Source of the DNA: Clostridia bacterium
Lineage (GTDB): Bacteria; Bacillota; Clostridia; Oscillospirales; CAG-272
DNA length: 64,000 bases
NCBI GenBank assembly: GCA_017556745.1
Contig: JAFYMF010000044.1
Location: 3,784-67,783 of the forward strand
Direction: 5' to 3'
Notes under the pieces: model-generated
Seen by the model: the letters and a program-made list of their open reading frames with translations, nothing else
The model's database searches: none
Told to the model about the DNA's origin: nothing
Translations under genes and position numbers: made by a program
In this document: piece by piece, positions 26,775 through 34,386 of the stretch
Layout: each line of letters starts with the position of its first letter
How positions within the stretch are numbered: the stretch's first letter is position 1

Positions 26775-27368
26775 ATGAATATATATGATATTTCTCAAGA
26801 TATATACGGATGCTCGGTGTATCCCGGAGATCCGGTACCTAAAAAAGAGGTGCTCTGTTCCATCGCTAACGGTGACGTATGTAATCTCACACAGTTTTCT
26901 ATGTGCGCCCACAACGGTACTCACTTAGACGCACCTTATCACTTTTTTGATAACGGCAAGAAGATAGACCAGCTTCCCCTCAAGCAAACCGTAGGTCTTG
27001 CATATCTGGCAGAAACAGACGTAGATCTTACGAAACACTCGGCAGAAAAGATTATTACTGCGGCAAGAGTTGCTTACCCGGGATGTGAGAAAAAAATTCT
27101 TATCAAGGGCAAAGCCGTTGTCACCGAAGAAGCGGCACAAGTCTTTGTCACCTCAGGTGTTGAGCTTGTAGGTGTTGAATCACAAACTGTCGGACCGTTT
27201 GATGCCCCAATGGAGGTACATAAAATACTTCTCAGTGCAGACGTTGTACTGCTGGAAGGTTTAAGACTTTCCGAGGTAAAGGAGGGACCGTACTTTCTCT
27301 CCGCCGCTCCTCTCTCCCTTGGAGACGGTGACGGTGCACCCACGAGAGCGTTTCTTATAGAAATATAA
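26775..27368 (+). CDS. Cyclase family metallohydrolase (KynB-like)
   Basis: YPGDP, HNGTHLDAPYHF, VHKILL, LLEGL, DGAPTRA. Confidence 0.88.
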   Translation: MNIYDISQDIYGCSVYPGDPVPKKEVLCSIANGDVCNLTQFSMCAHNGTHLDAPYHFFDNGKKIDQLPLKQTVGLAYLAETDVDLTKHSAEKIITAARVAYPGCEKKILIKGKAVVTEEAAQVFVTSGVELVGVESQTVGPFDAPMEVHKILLSADVVLLEGLRLSEVKEGPYFLSAAPLSLGDGDGAPTRAFLIEI

Positions 27369-27593
27369 TATAAAAAGACACCCGACCGGGTGTCTTTTTA
27401 TATTGGCTGGGATAGCCGGATTTGCGAACCGTGATTTTCGTTTTTTGTTTGCTTTTTTCTTCAGTTTCTGCTACGAAAATCTTACTCTGTGCTAACGCAC
27501 AGTGGCGATCCTGCATACTATAGACTATTCTAAACAATATAAAAAGACACCCGACCGGGTGTCTTTTTATATTGGCTGGGATAGCCGGATTTG
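27367..27593 (-). repeat. 58-bp direct repeat (tRNA-Gln 3' end + terminator), period 169 bp
   Basis: 27367-27424 identical to 27536-27593. Confidence 0.92.
27536..27573 (-). terminator. tRNA-Gln terminator (second copy at 27367-27404)
   Basis: AATATAAAAAGACACCCG-AC-CGGGTGTCTTTTTATATT hairpin. Confidence 0.85.
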
Positions 27594-27647
27594 AACCGAC
27601 GAATGCGAGAGTCAAAGTCTCGTGCCTTACCGCTTGGCGATATCCCA
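27573..27647 (-). tRNA. tRNA-Gln(TTG)
   Basis: TGGGATATCGCCAAGCGGTAAGGCACGAGACTTTGACTCTCGCATTCGTCGGTTCAAATCCGGCTATCCCAGCCA; full cloverleaf, encoded CCA. Confidence 0.97.
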
Positions 27648-27658
27648 TCGACCTATAT

Positions 27659-27687
27659 ATTTTATCACAATTACCGCAACATGTCAA
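27659..27687 (-). promoter_or_regulatory. sigmaA promoter for tRNA-Gln
   Basis: TTGACA-17-TAAAAT on the minus strand. Confidence 0.85.
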
Positions 27688-27722: not shown

Positions 27723-27751
27723 TTGAAAACAAGTTCTAAATGTGATATAAT
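27723..27751 (+). promoter_or_regulatory. sigmaA promoter for the repeat array and tRNA-Ser
   Basis: TTGAAA-17-TATAAT, 20 bp upstream of the first tRNA-like unit. Confidence 0.85.
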
Positions 27752-27771
27752 ACTTGAGTGCAAAGTAGCAC

Positions 27772-27995
27772 GCAGAGATATCGAAGCGGTCATAACATGA
27801 ATTGCCATTGACAATTCCGATGACTCGAAATCATCGTGCCGTCAGGCGCGACGGAGCTATGTCTGTGCACAAAAACTTAATACGCAGAGATATCGAAGTG
27901 GTCATAACATGAATTGCCATTGGCAATTCCGATGACTCGAAATCATCGTGCCGTCAGGCGCGACGGAGCTATGTCTGTGCACAAAAACTTAATAC
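27772..27995 (+). repeat. Two tandem 112-bp tRNA-Ser-like units
   Basis: Units start at 27772 and 27884 and differ at 2 positions; the first 25 nt match the tRNA-Ser 5' end (one mismatch in unit 1); each has a CTCGAAA loop. Confidence 0.95.
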
Positions 27996-28084
27996 GCAGA
28001 GATATCGAAGTGGTCATAACGGGGCTGACTCGAAATCAGTTTGCTGGCAACAGCACGAGGGTTCGAATCCCTCTCTCTGCGCCA
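27996..28084 (+). tRNA. tRNA-Ser(CGA)
   Basis: GCAGAGA/TCTCTGC acceptor, GCTGA-CTCGAAA-TCAGT anticodon arm, long variable arm, GAGGG-TTCGAAT-CCCTC, GCCA end. Confidence 0.96.
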
Positions 28085-28085
28085 G

Positions 28086-28121
28086 AAAGAGCCTAAAATG
28101 TTAAGTTTTAGGCTCTTTTTT
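28086..28121 (+). terminator. tRNA-Ser terminator
   Basis: AAAGAGCCTAAAA...TTTTAGGCTCTTT followed by a T run. Confidence 0.85.
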
Positions 28122-28174
28122 CGTTCTGGCACGAAAAAATGTGAAATTTGGAATTATGATTCCAACCAATCGTG

Positions 28175-29020
28175 TTAATCCTCTATTTTCTTGAACGCTT
28201 CGTAATTTGCTACTTCGCGTTCCATATGGTACACCGCATACTCAATCGTGTCGAAGTGGTATAGGTAGTCTTGCATCACGGTGTTGAATACCTTGGCAAC
28301 GATTGCTGGAGGATTTCTGAATGCCCCACAGCCGAACGCACCGAGGATCAGCACCTCATTTCCGTTGGCAGCTGATACCTCAAAGATTCTGCGGATTCGC
28401 TTTGTCAGCAGTTTTTCGAGATCTGCAGGCGTTATCTTTGCAGCCTTGTCTCCGGCGTGAGGATTCATAGAGTTGCTCGGACGTTCACGCAGATTCGGGG
28501 CCGCGCAGGTTAGAATATTCACGTTCCACCAATCCTCTTTGAGCAAGGGTTCGGGAAAGTTCGTGTCACTCTTGAACACGCACACATCCGGAGTATAAAT
28601 GCAGTCGTTGTTGTATAACGGATTGGCTGCTTTGCGATGCGATTTATAGAAAGCACTCCACATCGCATCGGTGTTCAGACACGGGTACAGCATCGTGCAT
28701 CGGCAAAGGCATTCCTCTTGTGCGGAAGAGCCGTTCACCACACCGCCGCCGGGATTGGTTGCCGAAGCAAAGTTCAGTACGCAGACCTTCTTGCCCTGCT
28801 TGGCATAGCTCTCGGCGGCTTCGAGAGAACGTTTGCCGCTGACTATAACTTTCGCTTTTTCGGATTTGTAAGCTTAAGGAATGATAATGTTATCGGTTTC
28901 GGCTATGAATGCTTGTGCTTGGATTTAATGTTGGACGGTGGTCATCAGAGCTGAGTCCGATGTATATTGCCATTCGGTATCGCGGAATATCTCCGCGTTT
29001 TTTGTTCTTCTGTCAGTCAT
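28175..29020 (-). pseudogene. TIGR02452/DUF2263 bacterial PARG-like macrodomain pseudogene
   Basis: One frame from MTDRRTKN with two in-frame TAA stops, then VLNFASATNPGGGVVNGSSAQEE and LILGAFGCGAFRNPP. Confidence 0.85.
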
Positions 29021-29083
29021 GTGATCACATCCTTTCTTTGTGGTAGCACACAAGATACCACAGAAATCCGGGAAAGTATAGAG

Positions 29084-29415
29084 TTATTTTACCTTTTTCT
29101 TGCGTGATTTTATTGCCTCATAGCTCGCATATACCAAACGTTCGAGCTGATCATCGGCAGCATCAGGCAGGCGCACCGAAATCCAATGGTACGTATTCAT
29201 GTGGTATGCTGGATATACACCGTACGTAGCATTGAATGAGCCGAACATTTCGAGCGGCAGCTTGAGATTGACTCTGTCGATCACCACCTTGTCGCTGTCT
29301 GCCGAACTTCCGGTGGGATACGCGCATCACGATGACGTACCATTTGCGATTGTTGCATGACGAAACACCGCCGTTTCGAAGTATTCCTCGAAGGGATAAT
29401 CGGCGGCAGTACCCT
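29084..29415 (-). pseudogene. MmcQ/YjbR-family DNA-binding protein remnant
   Basis: YPF..FETAVFRH / NRKWYVIVM / VNLKL..YPAYHMN..HWISV spread over three frames. Confidence 0.75.
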
Positions 29416-29892
29416 GATGTATGAACGTAATTGTTGCGCCAACGGGAATCTTGCACTTGGAGAAGGCAAACGGAGAAAGACGCTCGATGTGGTCTTTCTC
29501 AATCTCCTGCGCCAAATTTTCGCTCTTTTTCTCTTCAGCAGAGGGATCATACAGATGAAGCCTGTCTTTGCGGCCGCCGAGCACGGCAATTGTCTCAAGG
29601 ATAGAATAAGCCTGTTCGGGTGTCATCGCATAGAATTCACGAACGCGCTGTTTACCGTCCACATTGTCGATAGATCGCAGATTTGGATTGAGCTGGTCAA
29701 TCAGTGCATGGAGTTTCAAGTCCGTAAGGCGTTCCTCAACCTCGTATGTAGCGTAAATGCGGAAGGCAAAAGGAATACACTCACTGTTATTCAGTTGTTT
29801 CAACCGCGATTCCACGTTGTCAGCGTAGCCGATCTTGACATATTGTGGGAGGAGGGATTTGTAAGAATATAAATTACGCCAGCTTTATTCAT
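29416..29892 (-). pseudogene. GIY-YIG (T5orf172-like) nuclease remnant
   Basis: MNKAGVIYILTNPS, frameshift, then QYVKIGYADNVESRLKQLN..PFAF..REFY; C-terminus truncated. Confidence 0.8.
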
Positions 29893-29908
29893 AGAAACTC
29901 CTACTGTA

Positions 29909-30485
29909 TCAAGAATGTGGAATATTGTCTTTCGCTCTTGCCTCATAATATTCATTTGTCAATTCAGATCGCAAGAACGAGCCGTTCAAGAGCTTTATAA
30001 ACGCTTCTTTAGATTTTTTTGTATCCAATCGTATTGCAAGACCATCGTCACTATATTTGAAAGCGCCTTTAAGACCAGGATTTGTTTTTGTAAATTCCAC
30101 TATAACTTCTTTGGGAATATTATTTGCAAAAATAGGTGATGTCTTTTTCACTTTGGAGAGTTTTCTTGCAAAAGATACCTCTTCGGCACTATCTTTTAAT
30201 ACTTGAATATCTTCCAAAGGTTCGAGACTGTCTATTGATTCAATTGTGGTTGATGCCTCTCGAAATATCAGTTCATTAAAACCAAGATTTCGTTCCAGCG
30301 CCTTGACATCGGTAACAAATATCTCATCGCCAACACGGATGAGCTGAAAATCTCCGTTCAAGCGAAGGATATCATCGCTACTAATTTTTTCGAATCGTTC
30401 AGCACTCTTTTTGAGTCCTATGCAGACCAAGCAATAAATAAGAAACAAGAGATGCGCTTAATTGAATATACCGGAAATATTATCG
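29909..30485 (-). pseudogene. Kiwa KwaB (DUF4868)-like C-terminal fragment
   Basis: FEKI..DILRLNGDFQ, LERNLGF, FARKLSKV, FIKLLN.SFLRSELT..YY..AKD; no N-terminus, no kwaA. Confidence 0.65.
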
Positions 30486-30524
30486 CTGCCAATACCTCTT
30501 ACGATCAACAGATAACTTGAATGA

Positions 30525-31676
30525 TCACAGATTATTTATCCACTGAAAATTCTTTTCGTCCCGAACCCGTGTATTTCTCGGGCAGGTTTCAAGAATACGA
30601 ACTGCTTCTGTGAACTGCTTATTATCGCGAATCAGATCGTATATCGACTGTTTCATCTGATACAGGTAATCTTCCGGTGAGCCACACGCCCCCTGTCTGC
30701 CCATTTTCGATTCATCGTAAACCAAATGACTGACAAGATATGATGTATGTTCGGCATAGGGCGGGATTGATTCGTGCATTGCCGAAAATTCGGCGGTTTT
30801 CAGCCAGCATTTAGCCGATTTTTCGCCGTCGCCTTTCATCATGTATGTTTCCGCCATACGGGAGTACGATGCAGCCATATGCCATGCATAATCGAGATAA
30901 TCTCCATCCCGGAACAGACAGTTATAGATTGCAATCTGCATCTCATTCACGGCGATCCATGTGTCGTCATCACACTGCGGCATGCCTTTCGAATCTTCGA
31001 ACCATCTGCCGCACAGGTCAAGCACCTTTCTGTTGAACCACCAGAGCAGTTCCTGCATATTTTTCTGACGAAGTTCGATTCCTTTATCTGTGTCCGCAGG
31101 ATAGATGTCTTCCATCCACAGTTCCTGAGTGAAATTGAATCCGGATGGGATTTTCTTACGCATTTCTTCTCTCTCCTCAGGCTCGCAGACACAGCACAGG
31201 CTCTCGATAGCTCCATAACGATAGTCTTCCACTGTGCATCCTTCAAGAACCAGCTCAGCTACACGGCGGATTTCCGGCTTGCGCTCCTGCCAGTTCTCGT
31301 ACGTCACATCATACGACTGAAGTGCGGTTGTATAGAAATCCATCATTTTATAGGAATACGGATATCTTTTATAACCTTCTACCGCCATGGTAAGGGCTTT
31401 TGCTTCGTCTCCGAGACGTGCGGTCTCGCGGCAGTCAGCAATTAATTGGTCAATCATTGCATCGGTTTGGGTTTTATCATTCCCCAGAAGCTCATCTATG
31501 GTAACACCGAAATAATTCGCTATCACAGGTAAAGTATCAATATCGGGATAGGTTTCCGCGCGTTCCCATTTGGAAACGGTCTGCGGAGTAACACCCACGA
31601 ATTCTGCCAGTTTTTCCTGTGTGATGTCAGCGGTGCGGCGGAGCTTCTTGATATTTTCGCTGAAGTATTTTTTCAT
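30525..31676 (-). CDS. XRE-family HTH regulator with helical (TPR-like) C-terminus
   Basis: IKKLRR..ITQEKLAEFVGVTPQTVSKWE..YPDI..FGVTIDELLG. Confidence 0.85.
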   Translation of the reverse strand: MKKYFSENIKKLRRTADITQEKLAEFVGVTPQTVSKWERAETYPDIDTLPVIANYFGVTIDELLGNDKTQTDAMIDQLIADCRETARLGDEAKALTMAVEGYKRYPYSYKMMDFYTTALQSYDVTYENWQERKPEIRRVAELVLEGCTVEDYRYGAIESLCCVCEPEEREEMRKKIPSGFNFTQELWMEDIYPADTDKGIELRQKNMQELLWWFNRKVLDLCGRWFEDSKGMPQCDDDTWIAVNEMQIAIYNCLFRDGDYLDYAWHMAASYSRMAETYMMKGDGEKSAKCWLKTAEFSAMHESIPPYAEHTSYLVSHLVYDESKMGRQGACGSPEDYLYQMKQSIYDLIRDNKQFTEAVRILETCPRNTRVRDEKNFQWINNL

Positions 31677-31939
31677 TTTTTATCTCCGTGATATTTATTA
31701 CGGTACCGTTGTATTAAGTGTACATCATGATAAAGTGAAAATCAATAACGCGTTTGGCGGGGATTTTTCCCGTTCTTCGTTAGTTTTATAAGACTGTATG
31801 ATAATTGCATCATATCTCGTTTGCCATTCCGGGTACGAAGATAACACCCCACTGCCAATAACGGCGGTGAGGTGTTTGGATTTCCTATTCAGTTTCTGCT
31901 TTCCTGCATATTCTCACAAAACCCCCTCATCCCAGCGGC

Positions 31940-32488
31940 TTACAGTTTTTTCATCATCCAATCCGCGTCCGCATACGTACCGTCCGAATATCTCACATTG
32001 TCCGGAAAGGTACCGTATTTTTCAAACCCCAGACTTCTGTACAATGCGATCGCCCTTTTGTTATCCGAAATCACTTCCAGTTCCGCCTGTTCATATCCGG
32101 CTTCCTTCGCCGCTTCAAGAACTGCCTGCATCATTTTCCTGCCGATTCCGCAGCCGCAGTATTCCTGATACAGTGCAATGGCGATCCCGCAGCGATGGGC
32201 ATATCTTCTGTACGGTGCAATGCTCATCAGCGAACAGTTTCCGATGTGTTTCCCGTCAATGAAAGCGACAAGCATCAGTTCCCGTTCGTCCTCCGCTTTG
32301 CGTTCGATAAACGCTTTTTCCTGTTCGGGAGTTATGGTAATTTCGTCCGGTTCCCGGATCAGATACGGGGTTTCCGCCGATGTTATTCTGAGATATTCGA
32401 TCAAAGCGTCCGCATCCTCCGTTTCTGCTTTCCGCAGGAGAACTTCCCGCCCGAACTTATCTCTGAACTGTACCGATTCAAAATTCAT
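31940..32488 (-). CDS. GNAT acetyltransferase
   Basis: GIAIALYQEYCGCGIG, LEVISDNKRAIALYRSLGF. Confidence 0.9.
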   Translation of the reverse strand: MNFESVQFRDKFGREVLLRKAETEDADALIEYLRITSAETPYLIREPDEITITPEQEKAFIERKAEDERELMLVAFIDGKHIGNCSLMSIAPYRRYAHRCGIAIALYQEYCGCGIGRKMMQAVLEAAKEAGYEQAELEVISDNKRAIALYRSLGFEKYGTFPDNVRYSDGTYADADWMMKKL

Positions 32489-32744
32489 ATCTTGCTTTTT
32501 CCTTTCGTTTCAACCCAAAGTTCATTACAAATGTCCCGATCAGTGCCAGCGGAAGTGCGATGAACCTGTTGCGATAAACACGCTGACGGCATCGTATTTG
32601 GTGTCTCCTCCTGCCGGATGACTGATTTGTCGAAGTTTTGAACTATTATATACCAATCGCTGAAGAATGTCAATCATTGAAAACAGCCGGAGCAATTCCG
32701 TAATTCTGCAAGGTATATCTGTCAATTTAGGATGAATTACGGAT

Positions 32745-32766
32745 TTTATCAGTTATAACTGATAAA
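32745..32766. promoter_or_regulatory. 22-bp perfect palindrome, putative operator
   Basis: TTTATCAGTTATAACTGATAAA; partial repeat CAGTTATAA at 32790-32798; upstream of the AAA ATPase. Confidence 0.6.
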
Positions 32767-32844
32767 TTTACAATTCGATCATTGTATTTCAGTTATAAAT
32801 GGATTATACTATACTCAGCCACGAGAAAGGGGGACTAAAAAATT

Positions 32845-34059
32845 ATGATTAAACGCGAAATGTATATGAGCCGTATTCGTCCTTTCATCGGATCGGATCT
32901 TATAAAGGTCATGACCGGTATTCGCCGCTGCGGAAAGTCAGTTATGCTGGAACTGATCAAGCAGGAACTTACGGAATCCGGCATCAGCCCCGCTCAGTTT
33001 ATCTCCATCAATTTTGAGGATATGAACTATTCCCATCTGCAAACCGCTAAGGCACTGCATGATGAGATCACGAAGAGAGCTGCCGGCATAGAAGGCAAGG
33101 TATATCTGTTCTTCGATGAGATTCAGGAGGTCAGGGATTGGGAGAAATGTGTCAACTCCTTCCGTATTTCGCTGGACTGTGACATTTATATCACCGGTTC
33201 AAATGCCAAGCTGCTGTCCGGGGAGCTTGCAACCTATCTGGGGGGACGCTATGTCGAGTTTGTGATATACCCCTTTTCCTTTGCGGAGTTTATGAAGCTG
33301 TATCGCGGGGTTGCACCGGACGAGCCGGTTCAGAAATGTTTTCAGCAATACCTTTTATCCGGCGGTATGCCTTACCTTGCGAACATCCGATATGCAGATG
33401 CTCCGGCAAAGCAATACCTCCATGATCTCTTCAATTCCGTTCAGCTGAAGGATATTATGAAGCGAAACAAAATCAGAGATGTAGATTTGCTTGAGCGTAT
33501 AATCGCCTATGTTATGGCAAATGTGGGCAATACCTTCTCCGCAACCTCTCTTGCAAAGTTTCTGAAAAGTGAACAGCGTGCCGTAGCACCGGAGACTATC
33601 CTGAACTACATCAAATATTGCTGTGATGCCTATCTGTTCTATCAGGTGAAGCGTGAGGATTTGCAGGGCAAACAGATTCTTGCATCGAATGAGAAATATT
33701 ACATTGCGGATCACGGCATCCGGGAAGCTGTTTACGGAGGCAACACACGAGACATCAACCTTATTCTTGAGAATATCGTTTATCTGGAACTGATGCGCAG
33801 AGGTTATAAGGTTACTGTTGGCAAAACCGGAGACCTTGAGATTGACTTCGTATGCGAGAATCGGGGAGAGAAGCTGTATGTTCAGGTTGCTTATCTGCTG
33901 GCAGCGGAAGAAACAATTGCCCGTGAGTTTGGAGCGTATGACAGCATCCAGGATAACTTCCCCAAGTATGTCGTTTCTCTGGATGAGTTTGATATGAGCC
34001 GCAACGGCATCAAGCACCGGAACCTCCGTGATTTCCTCCTGATGGAGGAGTGGAACTGA
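32845..34059 (+). CDS. AAA_14 ATPase with DUF4143 domain
   Basis: TGIRRCGKS, INFED, FFDEIQ, ITGSNA, YIADHG, LENIVYLEL, EIDFV, YVQV. Confidence 0.9.
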   Translation: MIKREMYMSRIRPFIGSDLIKVMTGIRRCGKSVMLELIKQELTESGISPAQFISINFEDMNYSHLQTAKALHDEITKRAAGIEGKVYLFFDEIQEVRDWEKCVNSFRISLDCDIYITGSNAKLLSGELATYLGGRYVEFVIYPFSFAEFMKLYRGVAPDEPVQKCFQQYLLSGGMPYLANIRYADAPAKQYLHDLFNSVQLKDIMKRNKIRDVDLLERIIAYVMANVGNTFSATSLAKFLKSEQRAVAPETILNYIKYCCDAYLFYQVKREDLQGKQILASNEKYYIADHGIREAVYGGNTRDINLILENIVYLELMRRGYKVTVGKTGDLEIDFVCENRGEKLYVQVAYLLAAEETIAREFGAYDSIQDNFPKYVVSLDEFDMSRNGIKHRNLRDFLLMEEWN

Positions 34060-34330
34060 AGATATTCCAATAATGACATTCTAATAGAAGCAAAAGAAAT
34101 TTTAGACGCATTCAACACTCTAAAGCAAAACTGTTAATTTTCAGGAACAACAGGTTACAATCATGTGAACTGAAAAAGCGGATAGAGTAAAAACGCTGCA
34201 TTACGCACAACCCCTCCATCCCGCAGTTTTCCCGCAAATTCTCACAAACTGCGTACAATCCCGCAAAAATCCCCGAAAATCCGCGTTTTTCAGGGACGAT
34301 GCGGGACGAAACGGGACACCATGCCATTTG

Positions 34331-34386
34331 CTCGAAATGTCGTGTACAGAAATGCACCTAGGGTTCGAATCCCTCTCTCTGCGCCA
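34331..34386 (+). pseudogene. Orphan tRNA-Ser 3' half (att-like)
   Basis: CTCGAAA loop + variable-arm remnant + T arm + acceptor 3' strand + CCA; followed by AGACCGCAATT/AATTGCGGTCT hairpin. Confidence 0.85.

Follow-up and report, generated by a model that had tools for sequence, protein, structure and literature searches.

A folded, gene-less element family attached to tRNA genes of gut and rumen Clostridia, with a member behind a tRNA-Gln gene

Introduction

Prophages and genomic islands classically insert at tRNA genes, and a partial tRNA copy adjacent to such a gene is routinely read as an integration scar. The locus described here raises the question of whether such a copy can be something else. 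In a 64,000-nt stretch of a Clostridia bacterium genome (GenBank assembly GCA_017556745.1, contig JAFYMF010000044.1, positions 3,784 to 67,783 of the forward strand; hereafter the window), the 3' end of a tRNA-Gln(UUG) gene and its terminator are followed on the minus strand by 111 bp and then by the same tail and terminator again. An earlier note, made from the letters of this DNA, had taken the resulting 169-bp unit for a remodelled copy of the whole tRNA. The comparison reported here places it elsewhere: the sequence is a member of a small, folded, gene-less, tRNA-anchored element family of gut and rumen Clostridia. What might pass for a scar behind tRNA-Gln is a conserved, covarying and selected fold that recurs in tandem and occurs in about a fifth of the sampled genomes of one taxonomic family. 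The ~110-nt element family is apparently undescribed; a literature search (subscription journals and supplementary files were outside its scope) returned no description of such an element. If the element is a cassette, recombination of folded single strands, so far a matter of integrons and CTX-type phages, would be extended to tRNA genes, and the unit would exemplify an integrative unit that is both minimal and self-contained. Should it instead be an RNA, gut bacteria would have a new and abundant RNA family. On either reading tRNA annotation, island finders and assemblers can be misled by the element, since contigs end at its repeats. In what follows, G000 denotes the source genome of the window and other G numbers denote comparison genomes.

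Layout and fold of the unit

The tRNA-Gln(UUG) gene, which anchors the element, was placed at 27573..27647 (−) by ARAGORN and by the Rfam tRNA model (61.5 bits). A repeat search recovered two direct repeats of 58 nt, 100% identical, at 27536-27593 and 27367-27424, with a spacing of 169 nt and 111 bp between them, which is the arrangement described in the earlier note. Since the tRNA gene ends at 27573, the repeat consists of the last 21 nt of tRNA-Gln (27573-27593 in the first copy, 27536..27593, −) and a palindromic terminator of 37 nt that contains A and T tracts (terminator scan; inverted repeat). On the minus strand the order is tRNA-Gln, terminator, a 20-nt spacer (27516..27535), a 112-nt stretch (27515..27404), the terminator again (27367..27404; a hairpin of 17 pairs followed by a T run) and, entered at its 3' end, a convergent gene of the cyclase family (26775-27368, +; Pfam Cyclase match). 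The second terminator is bidirectional and also terminates the cyclase gene. The 112-nt stretch is made up of an element core (27425..27515, −) and a tail (27404..27424, −), which by sequence comparison repeats tRNA-Gln exactly, beginning in the T-loop (position ~57) and running to CCA. In its proportions the element is tRNA-derived over its final ~21-26 nt, and the remaining ~90 nt form a three-way junction of helices P1, P2 and P3.

The fold was obtained by minimum free energy (MFE) prediction, from the consensus with a related copy (genome G003, below) and from family covariation. A 154-nt stretch folded at −51.7 kcal/mol (z = −7.0; 0 of 200 shuffles were as stable), with part of this energy contributed by the terminator. 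In the MFE fold, P1 (5' strand 27506-27514, 3' strand 27424-27431) encloses the P2 hairpin (27487-27502, CUGUGC stem) and the P3 hairpin (27433-27481), whose 9-bp stem closes a 31-nt loop (27442-27472), all on the minus strand. The hairpins that had been described earlier, CTGTGC/GCACAG with a 4-nt loop and a 9-bp stem around a 31-nt A-rich loop, are therefore present on that strand. The parts assigned to a tRNA outline are arranged otherwise: the supposed acceptor 5' strand, GC-A-GGAUCG, is the 5' strand of P1 and pairs with the supposed T-arm, CGGUUC-GC. The tail is preceded by GGTTC and a 2-nt insertion, GC, both of which belong to P1. The description of this region as a T arm with a 2-nt insertion holds in so far as GGTTC-GC-AAATCC is the tRNA T-loop with two extra nucleotides, and fails in so far as the stretch serves as the 3' strand of P1, where the two inserted bases pair and covary.

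A whole tRNA-Gln duplicated in tandem and remodelled by insertions, as a pseudo-tRNA or tRNA-like RNA, would share with the gene the tail from T-loop to CCA, as is seen here, and a 7-nt match, ATCGCCA, lies at an equal offset from the 5' end of both. When the 111-nt insert was compared with the tRNA body, the best local match was a 7-mer, reached by 296 of 1000 dinucleotide shuffles, and the collinear 5' part alone was equalled by 41 of 1000; the likeness to the tRNA 5' end and D-loop is essentially no better than in shuffled sequence. Positions 27404-27515 gave no tRNA match (Rfam RF00005, even at E ≤ 10), and ARAGORN called only the two true tRNAs. The same type of core stands behind unrelated tRNAs, and across 73 element-tRNA pairs P2 and the P3 loop were no closer to the body of the cognate tRNA than to unrelated tRNAs. 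The whole-copy explanation is refuted by this family comparison, and we now regard it as scarcely credible.

A family of folded elements

A covariance model (CM) built from the copies of G000 and G003 (R1) gave weak matches in 9 of 151 genomes of the same bacterial family, with the same architecture and different stem sequences. A second model built from nine sequences (R2) scored the window copy at 107 bits and found the element in 31 of the 151 same-family genomes, which represent 24 of 97 genera. A single genome held as many as 11 matches, and tandem runs were numerous; in an order-wide sample, 4 of 151 genomes had a match. G000 itself gave one R2 match, and BLAST of the 111-nt insert against G000 returned only itself. 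A motif scan of species-representative genomes yielded at least 122 stretches, and R2 gave 68 matches among the 80 loci listed. By record title, the R2-matching loci among those listed come from metagenome-assembled genomes (MAGs) of gut or rumen Clostridia/Eubacteriales, and pattern matches from other phyla in the same listing had no R2 match.

In the nine-sequence alignment, 92.8% of cells were paired, versus 25-42% when partners were slid, and 15 of the 26 pairs had changed on both sides, a number reached by 0 of 500 shuffles; this alignment was fitted to the model, which favours pairing. Among 73 distinct sequences the stems contained 81 G·U versus 19 A·C on the tRNA-sense strand, a count in which related copies are non-independent and the model-fitted alignment may add a small bias. 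The excess of G·U over A·C argues for selection of the fold on the tRNA-sense strand, whether this acts as RNA or as single-stranded DNA. P3 has a stem conserved in sequence (TTTGCGC/GCGCAAA type; GATTTTCG/CGAAAATC in the window copy), and P2 is a variable hairpin. The length of the P3 loop is kept (median 31, interquartile range 30-31, range 29-39; n = 138) while its sequence drifts. By eye, many P3 loops start with a GGTGA-like sequence and several, including that of the window copy, contain AACTGAA.

Copies in tandem arrays recur with periods of 119-182 nt in 27 of 28 intervals. Presence is patchy even within a genus: of two genomes of one genus, G129 carries eight copies and G010 none. With Rfam 15 at E ≤ 10, the best overlap in the window region was Phe_leader on the other strand (30.7 bits versus 55), and 16 family loci gave only tRNA and 5S matches plus one sub-threshold MicX.

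Tail copies close behind tRNA genes also occur twice elsewhere in G000, which has 33 assembled tRNA/tmRNA genes. Behind a tRNA-Gln(CUG) gene (C16:5572-5950), the tail copy recurs with a 200-nt period and a different ~145-nt insert. Behind a tRNA-Leu(CAA) gene (C33:66309-66510), a minimal hairpin, an inverted T-arm copy, is joined almost directly to the tail. R2 misses both loci, so the family census is a lower bound.

Attachment to tRNA and tmRNA genes

Of the 138 distinct copies, 75 have a same-strand tRNA or tmRNA gene no more than 70 nt ahead of them, and for 72 of these 75 the distance is 47-64 nt (typically ~54 nt). A further 21 stand further along arrays, one lies more than 460 nt from a tRNA, and 41 have no tRNA in the stretch examined, many of these apparently with short flanks, contig ends or masked bases. 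The anchors are tRNAs of 15 amino-acid identities, and two are tmRNA genes.

In the loci inspected, a typical copy ends with GGTTC, 1-3 extra bases and then a copy of the neighbour's own tRNA from the T-loop towards CCA. Tail copies vary in length, some are decayed, and the terminator is sometimes included. The exact match to the cognate gene is usually 5-21 nt, and the mean longest exact match was 13.8 nt for the cognate tRNA versus 6.1 nt for other tRNAs. For many copies, reverse-complementing the cognate T-stem 5' strand and T-loop gives the 5' strand of P1, which follows the particular T-arm even where this is unusual, as in GGAGTTC with GAACTCC at tRNA-Lys and GTGTTCGAGTC with GACTCGAACAC at tRNA-Thr. 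In G000 and G003 the P1 5' strand pairs through wobbles only.

Orthologous copies and selection on the stems

When the unit was compared by BLAST with 61 relatives, G003, a goat-colon Clostridia MAG of the same genus as G000, alone matched beyond the tRNA tail. Its copy lies at the same place, adjoining the 3' end of the cyclase orthologue. No cyclase orthologue was found in G001 or G002, which leaves G003 as the sole orthologous locus for the window copy. The earlier note had named, as something that would speak against its reading, a large island at this site in relatives whose deletion leaves this sequence; the single relative with the locus has the same small element instead.

The two copies fold alike. 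Across 26 consensus pairs, two differ on both sides (compensatory) and two on one side, and all still pair; one of the changed pairs includes the 2-nt T-loop 'insertion'. Paired positions are 40/46 identical (87%), with all six changes keeping the pairing. The P3 loop is 18/31 identical, the spacer 43.5% and therefore not conserved, and the neighbouring cyclase gene 70.9% overall and 43.1% at third codon positions. A second orthologous pair, G011 and G130, stands behind tRNA-Leu(GAG) beside the same flanking gene; here 44/46 paired positions are identical (96%), versus 13/32 in the loop and 41.8% at third positions of the neighbour gene. Stems kept at 87% and 96%, set against ~42% at neighbouring third codon positions, indicate that the stems of the element are under purifying selection at orthologous loci, whereas the P3 loop drifts at a near-neutral rate. 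The earlier claim that the unit is more than a passive att scar is borne out by this comparison with another species.

The same data bear on a plainer alternative, in which an island or prophage with an integrase was deleted from tRNA-Gln, leaving attL and attR around 111 bp of random leftover. The repeat spans the T-loop through the tRNA 3' end, as at T-loop integration sites, and a real island bounded by a 27-nt tail repeat lies at the neighbouring tRNA-Ser in the window. Against this, the leftover is a member of a conserved family, whose architecture and spacing are fixed behind many tRNAs; at the G003 locus its conservation far exceeds that of neutral sites, and no integrase was found near 23 family loci. 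The scar explanation is largely refuted by family membership, by conservation in G003 and by these integrase-free loci, and is in our judgement very unlikely. The unit itself, as had been noted before, is far too small to encode an integrase.

In G003 the tail diverges from the tRNA sequence after GGCTAT. Upstream of the G003 copy, at the place that tRNA-Gln takes in G000 (contig C126 of G003, ~1660-1920, −), several similar short hairpins of the ...CGCCGAAGGCG... / ...GCCTTCGGCGTGAT... type are found, which resemble a REP-type repeat.

A possible protein-less cassette or RNA gene

To the explanation that we prefer we give about an even chance: the 169-bp unit is a copy of the folded, gene-less family that was inserted as a protein-less cassette at the T-loop of tRNA-Gln and then maintained. 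The architecture of the element, its link with tRNA and tmRNA genes, the cognate tail and the inverted T-arm copy were directly observed; insertion at the T-loop via a folded T-arm mimic is the proposed part. In the mechanism proposed, a cassette of tail, terminator, spacer and core would have entered the tRNA-Gln gene at the T-loop. Its recombination site would be helix P1, a folded single strand that may mimic duplex T-arm DNA, by analogy with integron attC and CTX phage attP sites. The incoming cassette would supply a replacement tRNA tail and terminator and so leave the tRNA whole, and the original tail and terminator that it displaced would become the second, downstream repeat. The recombinase would be encoded elsewhere and act in trans. 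After insertion the fold would be kept by selection on the tRNA-sense strand; if so, the element would also have an activity at its site, through a read-through RNA or through folded DNA of the lagging-strand template, which the tRNA-sense strand is in a tRNA gene co-oriented with replication.

Consistent with a cassette that carries no protein, 0 of 82 open reading frames (ORFs; ≥150 aa, within ~1.5 kb of 23 family loci) had an integrase, transposase or reverse transcriptase domain, and the genes neighbouring family loci were ordinary (transporters, aldolase, gyrA, PBP, smpB and others). Together with this lack of local recombinase genes, the covariation, the strand bias, the purifying selection, the tandem arrays and the patchy distribution were directly observed. 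The unit with both flanking repeats was also found in DNA contigs of three other studies, with 1-2 differences.

Several results weigh against a cassette. No recombinase could be linked to the family in searches of ORFs near the loci and for Y1 and integron integrases. No excised form or empty-site allele was seen; contigs assembled from public runs with 31-mers break at the 58-nt repeat and cannot show one, and metagenome scans for strain variants or an empty site, and for further copies of the G000 type, gave 0 each. In a comparison of G010 with G129 for an empty site, the locus was too diverged and was interrupted by a contig end. The relatives, a pattern scan of IMG/VR and BLAST against INPHARED yielded neither a full-size parent element nor a phage copy; the IMG/VR scan, made with one narrow pattern, gave 10 matches of which 0 were confirmed by the CM and 0 lay near a tRNA, and the INPHARED search gave no match with two queries, so that absence from phages is not shown by these searches. 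Upstream of the G003 copy, the ~550 nt to the contig end contain no tRNA-Gln, and the tail of this copy is decayed. An integron-like boundary, with a P1 5' strand that fits the upstream T-loop better than the downstream one, is neither favoured nor disfavoured: among the 66 of 122 elements in which the two sites differ, the strand fitted the upstream site better in 17, the downstream site better in 34 and both equally in 15, a comparison that mostly reflects whether the inserted base is paired. No promoter-like site precedes the core, since the consensus scan gave only a 9/12 match, inside the terminator; with a strong terminator upstream as well, an RNA would be made only by read-through. Finally, selection on the stems at orthologous loci in genomes with one detected copy is unlike a merely selfish cassette. 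It implies that the fold also matters in place, which fits a host function better.

This last result is the strongest point for a functional read-through RNA. In that explanation the element is a structured non-coding RNA gene family whose tail-bearing RNA is made from the tRNA promoter by terminator read-through or from an unrecognised promoter, and which spread with or beside tRNA genes, mobility being secondary. The covarying stems and their purifying selection while the loop sequence drifts speak for it, as do the 81 to 19 excess of G·U over A·C on the tRNA-sense strand and the terminator that follows many of the copies printed. A metatranscriptome contig covers 27302-27507 at a depth of 2.35, with 27100-27291 and 27508-27579 uncovered in that run; the contig is a weak hint, as its strand is unknown and DNA is possible in such libraries. 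On the other side, inspection of the printed loci showed no conserved promoter or −10 box in the 17-25-nt spacers, a strong terminator stands ahead of each copy, and mobile DNA typically has such features as tandem arrays, patchy presence within a genus and tRNA-specific tails. There was no match to an Rfam family, and neither the P3 loop nor P2 was complementary to the cognate tRNA in a way that pointed to a target. We consider an RNA gene family a real possibility, though on balance a doubtful one.

The cassette explanation has a broader form, which we put forward tentatively and hold to be possible at best: protein-less 'T-loop cassettes' would be a new class of elements that offer a folded T-arm mimic to a host recombinase, in an attC-like manner and independently of integrons, and that are then retained by the host as a working RNA or DNA site. 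Retained roles might include that of a decoy or landing site protecting tRNA genes from integrating elements, or of a read-through RNA acting on tRNA metabolism.

The junction between GGTTC and the tail admits one more explanation, in which the element encodes a guide-type RNA: a scaffold of ~90 nt would carry a 3' guide of ~20 nt, identical to the tRNA gene next to GGTTC, the RNA-guided protein that uses it would be encoded elsewhere, and the element would protect its own copy by the extra T-loop bases. The layout of a scaffold followed by a target-identical 3' segment would suit this, as would the 1-3-nt insertion exactly between GGTTC and the identical segment and the specificity of the fold for the sense strand. 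However, no associated protein gene was found nearby among the 82 ORFs at 23 loci (no search for TnpB, IscB or Cas was made), the G003 copy keeps the scaffold and has lost most of the 'guide', and about two thirds of the informative cases have the inserted bases paired inside P1. A guide RNA is improbable. Guide-like complementarity of the P3 loop and P2 to the tRNA body was looked for separately and rejected, with values of 4.70 and 4.82 for cognate and 4.82 and 4.85 for non-cognate tRNAs.

Two candidate mobilisers of the cassette were tried and rejected. Y1/RAYT transposases (PF01797) were present in 12 of 31 element-positive versus 35 of 120 element-negative genomes, and the richest genomes lacked them. 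Integron integrase (TIGR02249) was above the cut-off in 0 of 5 element-rich genomes (best score 52 bits versus a cut-off of 265), and 14 control genomes gave sub-cut-off matches only. The sole Y1 match in G000 is a broken remnant of such a transposase (PF01797; C19:2587-2826) with three in-frame stops.

Comparison with known systems

Elements with tyrosine integrases at tRNA and tmRNA genes are classed by sublocation, one class being the T-loop. Like the attL/attR repeats of T-loop elements, the unit directly repeats the 3' part of the tRNA, starting in the T-loop (position ~57), leaves the tRNA intact and shows tandem accretion at one site. Unlike them, its repeats enclose only 111 bp with no integrase or other gene, and what lies between them is a conserved fold that covaries and is under purifying selection, closed by an inverted T-arm copy.

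Repetitive extragenic palindromic (REP) elements and REPINs are mobilised by RAYT proteins, which resemble Y1 transposases. The family shares with REPINs the form of short, non-coding, multi-copy hairpin repeats that lie intergenically near terminators and have no gene of their own. It differs in being unlinked to Y1 transposases, and the copying of a neighbouring tRNA tail is a feature of the element and not of REPINs.

The CTX phage attP is a folded single-strand site. The element resembles it and the integron attC in that imperfect inverted repeats close a site which is conserved in structure, variable in sequence and mimics a duplex target, and also in strand bias and short tandem units; this likeness is one of working principle only. 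In integrons, recombination uses attC in the form of its folded bottom strand (PMC8876359). The element differs from integrons in having no integron integrase (0 of 5 element-rich genomes), in being anchored at the tRNA T-loop instead of attI, in having a three-way junction as its site, and in its cargo, which is only a tRNA tail and a terminator.

cis-mobilizable elements (CIMEs) are described as decayed integrative and conjugative or mobilizable elements (ICEs or IMEs) in which attL and attR are kept and the genes for integration and transfer are lost (PMC5704250). Within that description, the element corresponds to a CIME in that it lacks an integrase, is flanked by att-type repeats where its target gene ends (3') and can stand in tandem with other units; it differs in its unit size of 119-182 bp and in an architecture that is the same across genera. 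Neither the relatives searched, nor the IMG/VR pattern matches, nor phage BLAST revealed an ICE or IME that could be its parent. Of the closest known kinds, T-loop att repeats, integron cassettes and REPINs each fail at least one of the defining features tested, and CIMEs probably do as well.

Promoter-like sites and the neighbouring tRNA-Ser

A promoter-like site of the tRNA-Gln gene (TTGACA-17-TAAAAT with TG) was found at 27659..27687 (−); it matches at 11 of 12 positions in a consensus scan and is a consensus match only. Divergent from it lies tRNA-Ser(CGA) at 27996-28084 (+; ARAGORN/Rfam), with two tandem 112-nt units, 98% alike, upstream at 27770-27993 (+). Each unit starts with the first 27 nt of tRNA-Ser and contains a palindrome of the AATTGCCA/TGGCAATT type and an anticodon-arm-like hairpin, in which the loop CTCGAAA is kept on a different stem. 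A strong promoter-like site at 27723-27751 stands ahead of the units, which would therefore be co-transcribed with tRNA-Ser. The units were called by neither the tRNA model nor ARAGORN. Elsewhere, a partial copy was found in G001 (93% over 61 nt) and a 72% copy directly beside a tRNA-Ser 5' match in G025. A 23-nt stretch at 28238-28260, 246 nt further on, is 74% like the start of tRNA-Ser and of the upstream units, and may be chance or another fragment.

Behind tRNA-Ser, the last 27 nt of the gene recur at ~34360-34386 and bound an island of ~6.3 kb (28085-34386), whose ORFs include a microbial PARG domain fragment, a KwaB-like fragment (Kiwa defence) and an HTH protein.

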